IMG/VR virus record: IMGVR_UViG_3300034066_002191
Direction: 5' to 3' (one strand)
From: a virus
DNA: 64,000 nt
A program made the position numbers and the translations under genes. Each line of letters begins with the position of its first letter. Within the stretch, counting starts at the first letter, position 1. Below are positions 9,919 through 34,325 of the stretch, piece by piece. The notes under the pieces are model-generated. The model was not told the origin of the DNA, made no database searches, and was given only the letters and a program-made list of their open reading frames with translations.

Positions 9919-9940
9919 GGTCTGAAGGTTGAACAAATAT

Positions 9941-9996
9941 ATTATAACAGGCCCAAAGACACTATGTGCTCATGATGGGCCAGTTTAAAAATTGGT
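9941..9996 (-). promoter_or_regulatory. Promoter with extended -10 and an upstream imperfect palindrome, no -35
   Basis: ACCAA-N8-CTGGC, 32 nt, then TATAAT (TGTTATAAT). Confidence 0.6.
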
Positions 9997-12108: not shown

Positions 12109-12131
12109 GAGAAAAAATTTGAACTTCTATA

Positions 12132-12186
12132 ATTATACACAAAAAAACCACCTAATGGTGGCCAAGTAGACAGTATTTCATCTGTC
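12132..12186 (-). promoter_or_regulatory. Promoter with upstream palindrome, no -35
   Basis: GACAG-N8-CTGTC, 31 nt, then TATAAT. Confidence 0.6.
12141..12162 (-). terminator. Intrinsic terminator after gp46
   Basis: CCACC-ATTA-GGTGG followed by T7. Confidence 0.75.
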
Positions 12187-15200: not shown

Positions 15201-15698
15201 TCAATTCCTTAATTTACTGTGAACTGCATCTTTAATACTATTATAATCGGAATAGTTTCCTCCGTCAAGTGTGTTGTCATCAACAAACACTTCATCAAAC
15301 CCAGATCTTTCCAGTATTTTTCCCTTAATTTCTAATTGCCTTTTTTCTTTGGTTATTCTTCGTATAAAAGCATAGTGAATTACCTGAGTAAAATAAGCAA
15401 AAGGATTTGTTGATTTTTGGGGATCAAAATTTAAAATATATTGAACGCAATTTTCAATTCCGTCAGAAATCATATCTTCTTTGAACATATAATTGACAAA
15501 ATTTGGTTTAAATGACAAATGCGTCGCTATCTTTAAAAAACATTCTCCTATATAATTTGGAATTACTGGCTGCGGTAAATCTTTATCTTTTGCAATTTTA
15601 ACCAAATGCCGATAATCGATCAGGGCAGCCAAGAACTCTTTATTATTGACATAGTGAACACTACGCTTTCTTTTAGTCATGACGGCTGTTGTAATCAT
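15201..15698 (-). CDS. gp55: Late-transcription sigma factor
   Basis: HYVNNKEF, MISDGIENC, NPFAYFTQ. Confidence 0.95.
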   Translation of the reverse strand: MITTAVMTKRKRSVHYVNNKEFLAALIDYRHLVKIAKDKDLPQPVIPNYIGECFLKIATHLSFKPNFVNYMFKEDMISDGIENCVQYILNFDPQKSTNPFAYFTQVIHYAFIRRITKEKRQLEIKGKILERSGFDEVFVDDNTLDGGNYSDYNSIKDAVHSKLRN

Positions 15699-15725
15699 AA
15701 TACCTTACAAATAATATATATTGAT

Positions 15726-15754
15726 ATTATAACACAAAGAAATTGATTTGACAA
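15726..15754 (-). promoter_or_regulatory. sigma70-type promoter for gp55-47-46
   Basis: TTGTCA-N17-TATAAT. Confidence 0.75.
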
Positions 15755-15758
15755 GGGG

Positions 15759-15787
15759 TTGACACGCCTATCGAAAGTGAGTATAAT
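15759..15787 (+). promoter_or_regulatory. Perfect-consensus sigma70 promoter on the non-coding strand
   Basis: TTGACA (15759-64), 17-nt spacer, TATAAT (15782-87). Confidence 0.8.
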
Positions 15788-15869
15788 CAGCTTTGTCAGC
15801 GATGAAACTCATTTTATTACTTAATAATACTAGATACATTAATAAACAATAAAGATAAACATATAGGTA

Positions 15870-15899
15870 ATTTCCGAAGGAAATGTTCCCGAAGGGAAC
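15870..15899. repeat. Two abutting 15-nt inverted repeats with GAA loops
   Basis: ATTTCC-GAA-GGAAAT followed directly by GTTCCC-GAA-GGGAAC. Confidence 0.9.
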
Positions 15900-15910
15900 T
15901 AATAAAGTAC

Positions 15911-16312
15911 TTAATGATCCTTAAATAACTTTTCTAATGATTTTTTTGCTTCTTCTATATTTGAAATATATCCCATTTCTTTAGTAAGTTCAAAATGGTT
16001 CATTCCAAAATTTGAATTGTTCTTTTCTTTTTGTTTGACAAATTTATCATATACTGATATGATTTCTAAATCACTTGTTTCCGTCATCGTCATGATATTT
16101 TTCATATCAATGATAAAAATATCATCTTTTGTTGTTTTCATCCATGGCTCTACTTTATAAGCAAATCCATATCTAGTTTTTACTTCAGTGATAACTATTG
16201 GATCGCAAACCAATAATACCAAATTTCCATGTTCCTCAGAAGAAATAACCTTTGCAAATATCTCTTCTCCACTTATCAATTTTAAACTTGCATAAAAATC
16301 TTCTTCCATCAT
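15911..16312 (-). CDS. Conserved hypothetical protein, probable Sm-like fold
   Basis: LKLISGEEIFAKV...DP...PW; usual position downstream of uvsW. Confidence 0.8.
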   Translation of the reverse strand: MMEEDFYASLKLISGEEIFAKVISSEEHGNLVLLVCDPIVITEVKTRYGFAYKVEPWMKTTKDDIFIIDMKNIMTMTETSDLEIISVYDKFVKQKEKNNSNFGMNHFELTKEMGYISNIEEAKKSLEKLFKDH

Positions 16313-17784
16313 TTGTTTAAATTTACTGGTATAATTTCGTAATTGAATTCCTCTTCATTATACAATTTTATTCTTTCTATAAAGTGATTTAAGGTGTAAT
16401 TTTTTTTATTTTTATAAGTACAGTCATCAGAAATATCGTACAATATTGCTTTATCTTTGTTTTTTCCCTTTCTCAGTACTCTTCCTATGCTTTGTAAATT
16501 TCTGATTTTCGATTTACTTGGAGAAGCAAATATAACATTATGTAAATTTCTGATAGATATTCCAGTACTAAAAACCCCATAACTTGCAACTATAATTGCA
16601 TTTGACTCTCTTTCAGTTATTTCTCGTACTTCTTCCCTTTGGTTAACATCTACTCCTCCGTGAACAAAAAATATTTTTCTGTTCTTTTCGCTGTTACTAT
16701 TTATTAATTCGTATAATGGCTTACCATGTGTATCTACTCTAGAAAATAACACTAAGGTATTTCCTTTTAAATCTAAAGCAAGGTTTTTTATGAAGTTATT
16801 TCTTTTTTCGTTTGATATTAAAAATTGAATTTCATCTTCGTATTTATCGAACTGTTGTGATGTATGTTTCAATATCAAACAATGAATATCTAATTGGGAT
16901 GCTCTTCCCTTTTCGATCATTTCTTTTGTGTTGATTGTTTTGTATGTTGGACCAAAAAGACCTGATATTACCCATTCGTGTGTCTGTGAGTCTTTTCCTC
17001 CATTTGAAAGAGTACCAGTAAAACCAAATCTATACTTTGCATGATGGCATTTTTTCATGATATCAATTAAAGATTTTGATTTTGCTTGATGGCTTTCATC
17101 AACTATCACGCAATCAAATTCTTCAAAAAACGATTTCTCCATTTTAAAAATAGATTGCCAAGTCGAAAGAGTGACTGGAAGATCTGTATTTTTTTCTCTT
17201 CCTGAATATATCATGTGGCAATTATTCTCTGGACTCCACCCATACTCAGAAAAATCTTTATGCATTTGATGAATCAAAGAAGTAGTAGGAAAAATAATCA
17301 GGGTTTTCAGTTTCTTATTTGTGTAATATCTTGCTAGTGCATAAATGATTAAAGATTTTCCAGAAGCAGTTGGAGAAATGATAGTTTTCCTATTGTATCT
17401 AAGGCACTCATAAACTGCATTTATTTGATAGTCATATGGCTCATATGAACATATTGCATTCATATAGCCTTTTACCCCCTCCAGTGAAATCTCTTCGTTT
17501 ATCTCAAAAGGAAGTCCATAATATTTGTTTTCTTTAAATTCGTATGTATAATTATGTGACTTTATTTTTGCTATTACTTTATCTAGAAGTCCAGCATATA
17601 TTTCTCCAGTAGAAACCGACAATAGATGAATCGTCCCATCCCACCCAGTTTTTCTAAACTGAGGCATAAATTTTGCGCTATCTACTTCAAATGTAAAATG
17701 TGGTTGAAGTTCATATAAAATATGGGGTTCGCATTGTAATTTAATAAAAACTTCATTTTTCTTTATAATTGTTATGTCAGCCAT
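16309..17784 (-). CDS. uvsW: SF2 helicase UvsW
   Basis: SPTASGKS, VDESH, GFTGT, FSTGISI, QSIGRVLR. Confidence 0.95.
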   Translation of the reverse strand: MADITIIKKNEVFIKLQCEPHILYELQPHFTFEVDSAKFMPQFRKTGWDGTIHLLSVSTGEIYAGLLDKVIAKIKSHNYTYEFKENKYYGLPFEINEEISLEGVKGYMNAICSYEPYDYQINAVYECLRYNRKTIISPTASGKSLIIYALARYYTNKKLKTLIIFPTTSLIHQMHKDFSEYGWSPENNCHMIYSGREKNTDLPVTLSTWQSIFKMEKSFFEEFDCVIVDESHQAKSKSLIDIMKKCHHAKYRFGFTGTLSNGGKDSQTHEWVISGLFGPTYKTINTKEMIEKGRASQLDIHCLILKHTSQQFDKYEDEIQFLISNEKRNNFIKNLALDLKGNTLVLFSRVDTHGKPLYELINSNSEKNRKIFFVHGGVDVNQREEVREITERESNAIIVASYGVFSTGISIRNLHNVIFASPSKSKIRNLQSIGRVLRKGKNKDKAILYDISDDCTYKNKKNYTLNHFIERIKLYNEEEFNYEIIPVNLNK

Positions 17785-18205
17785 ATCCAGAAATATATTT
17801 TTGGTACTCGATACTATTTTTTACTTGATAAGTTCTACTATGTATCATTTTGAGGATATCGCTCAAATAATTTAACATAGCATCGTAATATTCAATTTTT
17901 AATGATGCATTTGATATGTCTTCATCTGCATTCATGCAATTCTGCAAGTGCTCTTTATCTCTTATTTTTTTCTGATATATTTCTTTGTATTCCTCTGGAT
18001 CTGCTTTTCCAGTATAATATTCGTATTTTTTGAGTCTTATTTTGTTCTTATCTTCTAATGCTTTTTTCTTTAATAATAAAATATTATTAAATATCTCATA
18101 ATATTTTGAATGTAATTGTGGAATTTTTAAGGATTCTAGATGCAAATTGTCAGGATCTATGTAAGAATCCTCTTTCCACATTGATTGCACTTCATTGATA
18201 TTCAT
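17777..18205 (-). CDS. uvsY: Recombination mediator UvsY
   Basis: KIPQLHSKY, YYTGKA, RTYQVKNSIE; directly upstream of uvsW. Confidence 0.88.
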   Translation of the reverse strand: MNINEVQSMWKEDSYIDPDNLHLESLKIPQLHSKYYEIFNNILLLKKKALEDKNKIRLKKYEYYTGKADPEEYKEIYQKKIRDKEHLQNCMNADEDISNASLKIEYYDAMLNYLSDILKMIHSRTYQVKNSIEYQKYISGYG

Positions 18206-18764
18206 ATAGTAAATTTCCCTTATTGTCAGTTATTTCATAGTAAGTATATTTAAACTTTACTTCGGCAGTAAAGTATTCGGCATCATTATCAGTAGCATCA
18301 AATAATAGTGTAGTTAAATCATATGGAAACAAATCGTAAAACTTTACTTGAAAATTTGGTCTTTGACTACTAGTTAAAACTTGTAGAGTCCCATCTGAAT
18401 ATAAATTTAATGTTGAGTTTATTTTTGTATCTATTTTTTGATTTTGTCTCTGTAATGTATATATCTGGTCCAATGATTCTGGATAACCAAGACCTCTAAT
18501 CCAATTTTGAATTTCCATGTAATTTTCTAATCCTTCATCTACTAAAAAGCGTAGATTGAAATCTTCAAATTTTATCTTATCTCCTGGTTGAGCAATATCT
18601 TTTAGATATGTAGGTTGATTTGCTATTCCCAAACTCAAAGAAGGTATATTAGCAGTATTTGAAAAAAATGCTACTTTTGGCGATCTCGTGATAGTAAATC
18701 TAAATTGTGTTGGAGATAGAAAATTTCTATTTTGTATTTGATTACTAAATGCGTTTCCGGCCAT
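18192..18764 (-). CDS. gp3: Tail completion / tube terminator protein
   Basis: NRNFLSP, PGDKIxFEDFNLRFLVDE.LENY, FKYTYY. Confidence 0.85.
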   Translation of the reverse strand: MAGNAFSNQIQNRNFLSPTQFRFTITRSPKVAFFSNTANIPSLSLGIANQPTYLKDIAQPGDKIKFEDFNLRFLVDEGLENYMEIQNWIRGLGYPESLDQIYTLQRQNQKIDTKINSTLNLYSDGTLQVLTSSQRPNFQVKFYDLFPYDLTTLLFDATDNDAEYFTAEVKFKYTYYEITDNKGNLLYEYQ

Positions 18765-18773
18765 TTTTTCTAC

Positions 18774-18781
18774 TATTTATA
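18774..18781 (-). promoter_or_regulatory. T4-type late promoter
   Basis: TATAAATA 9 nt upstream of the gp3 start. Confidence 0.8.
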
Positions 18782-18790
18782 CTTGGTAAT

Positions 18791-18816
18791 AAAAAAGGGA
18801 CCCGAAGGTCCCTTTT
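18791..18816 (-). terminator. UUCG-tetraloop terminator after gp23
   Basis: GGGACC-TTCG-GGTCCC followed by T6. Confidence 0.9.
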
Positions 18817-18835
18817 GGAATTTATACAAGAAGAA

Positions 18836-33320: not shown

Positions 33321-34325
33321 TTAATCTAGTGAGCCAGAAAACCCAAAATCGTCCCCAGGCTCTATTAATAAATCGTCAGATAGAGTAATTAATTTGACCT
33401 CAGATCCAGAAACATGATCTAATATTACCGTAGAATCCTGACCTCTTCTAACAGATAAAATATTACCGGAAATTGACTCAACATATAATTCTTCTTTATT
33501 GATATCAAGATATGATCCAACAGTAATTCCAACTGAACTCACGACCTCAATGATATTATCTGTTTTTTCTGCATCTTTTGATAGTGTTGTGGTTACAGTT
33601 CCAGTATAATTTTGTATTGCACGAGGTTCTACACTGTATGTAACTTCTCTTCTTGCTGACCCTGACGCATCACCAGAAACAAGACCAATAGAAACTTTTT
33701 TGATGATTTCGGAAGAAACGGAATCGGAAGATACTGGACCAAACAGATATGTCTTTGCAGTAAATTTTAAAGTATAAATTAATGCTCTTCTTTCTGTATA
33801 ATCACCTTCATAATTATCTGTCATTGATATATTATCAAGTACTATGGGTATATCTCTTTTTTCTCCTATTTCCTTTACTAAATCAACTGTTAAATTGTAA
33901 TTTGGTTGGAAATATGGTAATATTTGCTCAACTATCTGAAGCATATCATCGTTAAGTTTTGTTATTATACTCAATTCAAAATTTAAATTATAAGGAACAG
34001 GTAAATATGCTTTTCTTATTTGATTATTATTTACATCTTTAGTTAAAAATGTTTGAGTAGTCGTCAGTTTTCTAGTGGTGTCATATGACATTCCTATTAC
34101 TTCAAACGACATTCTAGGCAAATTTACCTGAACTGGTTTATTGAGATTTGGGACTTGTTCCAATCTAGCAAGAAACTTCTGAGTTGGTCCATAAGCCAAT
34201 GGAACTCTAACGGAAGAAACAACATTCCCAGAGTCATCTTTGTGCTTAATAGTTATTCCATTAAATAGTGTTCCAAATGCAACTACTGTCTTTCTTGTTA
34301 TTTCGTGATAAAAATATTCAAACAT
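33321..34325 (-). CDS. gp15: Tail sheath stabiliser / terminator
   Basis: YFYHE, FGTLFN, VPLAYGP, LPRMSFE, QIVEQILPYFQP. Confidence 0.93.
   Translation of the reverse strand: MFEYFYHEITRKTVVAFGTLFNGITIKHKDDSGNVVSSVRVPLAYGPTQKFLARLEQVPNLNKPVQVNLPRMSFEVIGMSYDTTRKLTTTQTFLTKDVNNNQIRKAYLPVPYNLNFELSIITKLNDDMLQIVEQILPYFQPNYNLTVDLVKEIGEKRDIPIVLDNISMTDNYEGDYTERRALIYTLKFTAKTYLFGPVSSDSVSSEIIKKVSIGLVSGDASGSARREVTYSVEPRAIQNYTGTVTTTLSKDAEKTDNIIEVVSSVGITVGSYLDINKEELYVESISGNILSVRRGQDSTVILDHVSGSEVKLITLSDDLLIEPGDDFGFSGSLD

Follow-up and report, generated by a model that had tools for sequence, protein, structure and literature searches.

In bacteriophage T4, read-through of early transcription units gives rise to "anti-late" RNA, and in the switches of temperate phages divergent promoters overlap, so that occupancy of one by polymerase prevents use of the other, a form of transcriptional interference. 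T4-type phages RB49 and phi1 carry a different arrangement, the promoter-early stem-loop (PeSL) cassettes, of which ~50 occur per genome in hyperplastic regions, facing a downstream ORFan, with a stem-loop that overlaps or abuts the promoter and is proposed to stop upstream transcription (Arbiol 2010, PMC2839356). The T4 replication origins oriF and oriG, for their part, combine a prereplicative promoter with an A+T-rich unwinding element, the site of a persistent R-loop which is then removed by UvsW, a protein made late (PMC3016281).

Here, we analyzed a 64,000-nucleotide stretch of viral DNA (hereafter "the window") and in particular the 212-bp gap between the genes for an Sm-like protein and for the late sigma factor gp55. 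With moderate confidence, we read this gap as a regulatory junction organized around a conserved divergent promoter pair, in which one promoter, P1, would drive transcription antisense to a late unit and compete with the promoter of gp55. New in this work are the quantification of P1 conservation across the family, the recognition of an AT-rich tract and two hairpins downstream of P1 as a lineage-specific insert, the coordinates of P1 in Syn9 and other isolates, and a clade-specific internal promoter, P2. Our literature search, whose coverage did not extend to the Syn9 start-site study (Doron 2016), found no published antisense promoter at gp55.

Genomic context of the gp55 junction

Blastn and Pfam searches assigned the window region to a T4-like cyanomyovirus (Kyanoviridae), and one contig in IMG/VR is 99% identical to it. 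The minus strand carries 48 ORFs of at least 80 aa, which cover ~61 of the 64 kb, and the plus-strand ORFs, which are short, overlap with these; an earlier note, made from the sequence alone, had likewise placed all genes on the minus strand. Their order on this strand is gp23, a gp3-like gene (18192-18764; 40% identity to the Syn9 gp3-like protein, E=5e-43), uvsY (17777-18205), uvsW (16309-17784), the Sm-like gene (15911-16312), the gap (15699-15910), gp55 (15201-15698; Sigma70_r2 domain, homologues annotated as gp55), gp47, a DUF3110 gene, and gp46. The gene that immediately precedes the gap had been taken for uvsW, but it encodes a 133-aa protein with an Sm_like domain (PF16243, E=2.6e-9, with synteny in agreement), which GenBank relatives label "methylamine utilization". 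This Sm-like protein is a possible RNA-binding partner of RNAs encoded nearby, and its gene is the last of a gp3-uvsY-uvsW-Sm unit. The unit begins behind the gp23 terminator (18793-18816, minus strand), a symmetric structure with U-tracts and a UUCG tetraloop on the coding strand, where a late-promoter motif, TATAAATA (18774-18781, minus strand), stands 9 nt before the gp3-like ATG.

Other promoters were seen on the minus strand as well. A near-consensus one at 15240-15268 (TTGACG-17-TATAAT, 11/12) falls in the 3'-terminal part of gp55 and is probably where transcription restarts for gp47, the DUF3110 gene, and gp46. Promoter regions at 9919-9996 and 12109-12184 have a TATAAT and an upstream palindrome without a -35 box, and may belong to a promoter class other than that of P1.

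A conserved antisense promoter back to back with the gp55 promoter

On the plus strand, the gap contains a sigma70-type promoter, P1 (15759-15787), composed of TTGACA (15759-15764), a 17-nt spacer, and TATAAT (15782-15787), with a predicted start near G15795. The gp55 promoter faces the other way on the minus strand (15726-15754), with TTGTCA (15754-15749), 17 nt, and a TG-extended TATAAT (15731-15726); its -35 is weak, and 27 nt separate the end of the promoter from the gp55 ATG. In the window, 4 bp separate the -35 box of P1 from that of the gp55 promoter, exactly as had been described before. P1 is the sole perfect TTGACA-N17-TATAAT on either strand of the 64 kb, and shuffled windows contained a mean of 0.07 perfect matches, with at least one in 7 of 100 shuffles. 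By itself, this perfect match is only marginally beyond chance, and its significance comes from conservation.

No gene that P1 could serve lies past it on the plus strand, and the gaps of relatives contained no conserved plus-strand ORF downstream of P1. A candidate small ORF after P1 was rejected, its start codon being unconserved and its peptides 3-16 aa long. Rfam gave no match in the window at the gathering score and, at permissive thresholds, only chance-level matches in 15650-16000 (E>4), and a tRNA/tmRNA scan found nothing.

To survey relatives, 80 IMG/VR loci were retrieved via the Sm-like protein and the gap between the Sm-like gene and gp55 was extracted from each, yielding 52 distinct gaps. 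All 52 contained an antisense promoter matching at least 10 of the 12 consensus positions, at flanking protein identities down to 44%. The back-to-back pair reported in the earlier note is real, and its plus-strand member is conserved well beyond chance expectation. TTGACA was exact in 50/52, the spacer measured 16-18 nt, and the -10 read TAnAnT, varying at positions 3 and 5 only, whereas the spacer sequence, which provides an internal control, was unconserved in an alignment of 49 distinct sequences. P1 was also found in seven cultured isolates, namely Syn9, S-PM2, P-SSM2, S-SM2, Bellamy, P-TIM68, and SynMITS9220M01; in Syn9 (NC_008296, minus strand), its -35 occupies 123734-123729. The window itself displays every family feature: TTGACA, a spacer within 16-18 nt, TAnAnT, a conserved start-site box (see below), and a position back to back with the gp55 promoter.

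Across the 52 gaps, P1 is closer to consensus (scores of 12, 11, and 10 in 15, 27, and 10 gaps, respectively) than the gp55 promoter (12, 11, 10, and 9 in 1, 24, 18, and 9 gaps). The latter has TATAAT in 44/52 gaps and a TG extension in 46/52, and with a -10 of this extended type it should be less dependent on its -35. In short gaps (~100 bp) where the gp55 -35 is TTGTCA, the two -35 hexamers share 5/6 positions; certain other lineages have a weak sense -35 that is separate from that of P1, and the base completing the sense TTGTCA varies among relatives. This pattern of conservation fits the antisense TTGACA and not the sense -35 of the gp55 promoter, and indicates that P1 is under selection. 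Because it is kept in every relative examined, P1 is probably an antisense control element.

A start-site box and second copies of the promoter module

The alignment of the 49 distinct sequences also delineated a box of ~22 nt spanning the predicted start (15788-15810, plus strand; the discriminator plus approximately the first 16-20 transcribed nt), which has high information content family-wide. S-PM2 and S-SM2 each carry a second copy of promoter plus box 50-80 nt upstream of annotated genes in the same orientation; the similarity in S-PM2 spans -35 to ~+22, and in a 149-kb relative a further copy of the module is similar in its spacer too. The complete genomes of S-PM2, P-SSM2, S-SM2, and P-TIM68 each have 1-2 copies of the module, and the 64-kb window has one. 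Since the additional copies stand before genes in sense orientation, P1 plus box appears to be a working promoter module, an argument that the copy next to gp55 is functional too. Sharing of the box with these copies also points to a promoter/leader module and not to a unique RNA.

Three further observations concern the module. One contig (G005, that of L073) has copies at 34132-34168 (minus strand) and 106268-106304 (plus strand), 72 kb apart, which share even their spacer sequence; this points to a recent event of duplication or gene conversion. A 3-bp covarying stem at the start site (ACC/GGT and variants) was rejected as an RNA structure, its register being inconsistent and partly upstream of the predicted start. 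Finally, a scan of 185,579 prokaryote genomes with the promoter-plus-box pattern was too unspecific, the matches listed being mostly Firmicutes consensus promoters together with one Synechococcus MAG match unrelated to gp55.

A lineage-specific AT-rich tract and twin hairpins

Past the start of P1, the window contains an AT-rich tract (15805-15869) with up to 85% AT over 60 nt, which is within the top 0.3% of such segments, with 21 further regions of the window as AT-rich (22 in all); TRF detected neither tandem repeats nor iterons in it. Two abutting hairpins follow, B (15870-15884) and A (15885-15899), each with a perfect 6-bp stem and a 3-nt loop. The loop sequence is C-GAA-G on the plus strand, corresponding to C-UUC-G on the coding strand. 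Hairpin A has four GC pairs and starts 12 nt past the Sm-like stop on the coding strand. This succession of ~60 nt of AT-rich DNA and twin hairpins had been described correctly in the earlier note, as had the contrast with the UUCG terminator after gp23: neither strand has a U-tract after the hairpins, and these do not qualify as intrinsic terminators, whereas all five clear terminators elsewhere in the window have one. They are also weaker (~-11.7 kcal/mol for the pair vs -15.7 for the gp23 terminator), and the weak fold and missing U-tract make termination of a P1 RNA uncertain. Twin hairpins arose in 0/200 shuffles folded as DNA and in 5-7/200 folded as RNA, and the coding-strand fold of the whole gap (z=-2.4) is explained by the hairpins together with an AT-rich long stem.

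Both elements are restricted to long gaps (13/52) and absent from the 39/52 short ones. The seven cultured isolates, with gaps of ~100 bp, have neither and keep P1, which points straight into the 3' end of their Sm-like gene. Similarly, AT content over the 60 nt after the P1 start has a mean percentile of 0.51 in the 39 short gaps and 0.80 in the long ones. 

Eight lineages have the twin abutting hairpins, always 1-12 nt past the Sm-like stop and at a variable distance from P1. The stems differ among lineages and are always perfectly paired, all changes being fully compensated, and the coding-strand loop is C-TTC-G (plus-strand C-GAA-G) in 13/19 hairpins. Because the stems differ yet always pair, and the loop is mostly kept, selection acts on both pairing and loop; all pairs are Watson-Crick, which is compatible with either strand and with RNA as well as DNA. 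One lineage has an additional hairpin pair with reversed loop orientation.

The insert itself looks expandable. The first 95 nt past the Sm-like stop in L011 and L014 contain four hairpins, a GAA-loop pair and then a TTC-loop pair (coding strand), and the adjoining AT-rich tract is longer in these loci, with repeated TTAAGG-type words. In the window, the stretch just past the box (15812-15835) resembles, as in long gaps generally, the complement of the last Sm-like codons and stop of short-gap phages, and may be a footprint of how the insert arose.

Proposed antisense transcription and promoter competition

We propose that a host sigma70-type holoenzyme would recognize P1, which serves no gene, and that a non-coding transcript would start near 15795 and run against the gp3-uvsY-uvsW-Sm unit. 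Going by geometry alone, P1 is an opposite-strand promoter whose transcript overlaps a gene, i.e., cis-antisense, and in the 39 short-gap relatives its start lies 15-37 nt from the Sm-like stop. As the -35 boxes either overlap by 5/6 (short gaps with TTGTCA) or are one helical turn apart (window), the consensus P1 would compete with the weaker gp55 promoter. Such competition for polymerase at P1 could tune gp55 expression, while antisense transcription would collide or pair with late-unit transcripts and in this way damp premature uvsW and uvsY expression, along with read-through into gp55, for as long as host-type transcription dominates. We infer the firing of P1 and P2, its timing, the RNA ends, and the effects of the RNA from geometry and conservation. 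Among the possibilities raised in the earlier note, a ~105-nt RNA or a longer antisense RNA against the uvsY-uvsW transcript is the one that best fits the evidence.

In the lineage of the window, an insert made up of the AT-rich tract and the two stem-loops lies between P1 and the Sm-like stop. The most likely role of the stem-loops is at the RNA level, where they would attenuate both converging transcripts or stabilize their 3' ends, giving a P1 RNA of ~105 nt. A second antisense promoter, P2 (16035-16063, plus strand; TTGACA-17-TATGAT with TG), is found just beyond the hairpins, inside the Sm-like coding sequence and 124 nt from its stop, from where it would restore antisense transcription into the unit. 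P2 is conserved in the insert-bearing clade of the window (Sm identity of at least 71%) and nowhere else, with a 12/12 match in five relatives. Variable columns amount to 2/12 in its hexamers and 10/17 in its spacer, compared with 46% gene-wide, which is modest support (binomial P=0.037), and the amino-acid sequence at P2 is conserved as well. The P2 -35 relies on a rare GTC Val codon that is selectively retained: all clade members have it, and other lineages never use it at this valine. The placement of P2 beyond the hairpins would fit a scenario in which antisense transcription into the unit is the selected feature, although it is suggestive only: the hairpin-bearing lineages L015, L017, and L078 are without P2, and the argument that P2 compensates for the hairpins is thus incomplete.

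At the far end of the unit, the gp23 terminator (gap region 18774-18835) is flanked by A- and U-tracts and is probably bidirectional. Plus-strand RNA from P1 or P2 could extend ~3 kb, up to this terminator.

T4-like cyanophages, which rank among the most abundant ocean viruses, have in the gp55 protein the master switch for their late genes. An orphan consensus promoter set against, or overlapping, the gp55 -35 in all phages examined points to an undescribed timing layer of the early-to-late switch, possibly involving UvsW, and this promoter is directed into a unit for recombination and repair. If this interpretation is correct, start-site data for Syn9 should include a primary 5' end close to position 123699 (NC_008296, minus strand), and those for S-PM2 one slightly downstream of 74896 (LN828717, minus strand).

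Alternative interpretations of the junction

P1 might instead yield a discrete, trans-acting small RNA of ~105 nt (15795-15900), possibly working with the Sm-like protein and built from a conserved box at its 5' end, a body rich in A, and two hairpins at its 3' end. The promoter, the conserved 5' end, and the 3' hairpins are all present, the adjacent gene encodes an Sm-like and possibly RNA-binding protein, and S-PM2 has one proven antisense RNA, CfrI (PMC2984593). However, the predicted 105-nt RNA is no more structured than shuffles (z=-0.83) and has no U-tail, its body is conserved no better than neighboring coding DNA and is missing in most relatives, its 5' box is common to mRNA leaders, and in short-gap phages the P1 transcript simply enters the Sm-like gene. 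Overall, we consider such an RNA unlikely.

The same features can also be read entirely from the sense strand or as DNA elements. The hairpins and AT-rich tract would then form a PeSL-like attenuator and the AT-rich upstream region of the gp55 promoter, and "P1" would be an upstream or shared -35 element, or a recombination linker, without any functional antisense RNA. Followed in the sense direction, the succession of stop codon, stem-loops, AT-rich region, -35, -10, SD, and ATG is indeed the PeSL layout of RB49 and phi1 (PMC2839356), and one or two copies of the module per genome could mediate recombination. Yet the -10, the spacing, and the start-site box of P1 are all conserved in the antisense register, and they recur together in sense orientation ahead of genes elsewhere; if P1 were just an upstream element of the gp55 promoter, none of this would be needed. 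The 64-kb window also has a single copy of the module. This reading seems unlikely to us.

A further alternative is a replication origin of the oriF/oriG type, the other function proposed in the earlier note. Here, the P1 transcript would hybridize in the AT-rich tract and prime leading-strand synthesis, and the displaced plus strand would form the two C-GAA-G hairpins, holding the loop open or loading a primosome, until late UvsW removes the loop. DNA hairpins of the d(GCGAAGC) type are unusually stable, and the plus-strand C-GAA-G loop is kept in the 13/19 hairpins mentioned above despite stem changes. Both sequence features of the T4 origins lie within ~140 bp, a promoter that by its sequence would qualify as prereplicative (its timing being presumed) and, directly downstream, an element of 85% AT; moreover, uvsY and uvsW adjoin the locus, and the hairpins are not canonical terminators. 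Against this, the AT-rich tract and hairpins are missing in 39/52 relatives and in 7/7 cultured isolates, all of which retain P1, and AT content past the P1 start is average in the short gaps. Within the window, the tract is one of 22 comparably AT-rich regions and has no iterons. The hairpins track the Sm-like stop codon and not P1, and the module elsewhere is an ordinary gene promoter. GC skew, which the earlier note had put forward as a check, shows no turning point at the site, with values of -0.13 to -0.14 on both sides and a cumulative curve that runs straight through it, in a monotonic fall over 12-18 kb. A T4-style, transcription-primed R-loop origin as a conserved function is thus not supported by these comparisons, and we rate this reading as improbable; the origin-like look of the window stems from the lineage-specific insert and not from a conserved element.

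A narrower version, in which P1 was turned into an R-loop origin in the uncultured clade of the window alone, with C-GAA-G hairpins that lock the loop or recruit a helicase loader, strikes us as improbable, and its extension to the whole family as more so. If true, this clade origin would be the first to be mapped in a marine cyanomyovirus. Our literature search found no mapped cyanomyovirus origin, and only the prediction of a single theta origin for Syn9, with no position given.

Comparison with known systems

Like oriF(uvsY) and oriG(34) of T4, the locus combines a pre-late promoter with an A+T-rich stretch within ~100 bp (Kreuzer and Brister 2010, PMC3016281), and it lies next to uvsY and uvsW, with UvsW under a late-type promoter motif. 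Unlike in T4, most P1-bearing relatives are without the AT-rich element, and P1 is of host type, not MotA-dependent, and directed against genes. T4 origins have no hairpins whereas the window has two.

Like a PeSL cassette, the junction occupies an intergenic gap of a T4-type phage and brings together a consensus sigma70 promoter, an AT-rich region, and stem-loops. It differs in that P1 faces no ORF that it could serve with an adjacent stem-loop, the stem-loops lying ~80 nt beyond the P1 -10 (15788-15869 between), and in that the many dispersed copies of a PeSL are replaced by one or two per genome, at a fixed site in the core genome.

The T4 anti-late RNA and CfrI are parallels to our preferred reading, a P1 transcript antisense to the late unit, being antisense RNAs made by the host-type apparatus and proposed to modulate the genes they overlap, a property which for P1 is predicted from the sequence. 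The anti-late RNA has no dedicated conserved promoter, whereas P1 is one, and CfrI of S-PM2 (PMC2984593) is located at psbA and not at gp55. Finally, the phage studied here is lytic and no repressor or operator was identified, unlike in the switches of temperate phages, and the competition between P1 and the gp55 promoter is deduced from geometry only; as in those switches, however, the promoters are very close, and converging transcription would oppose the neighboring unit.
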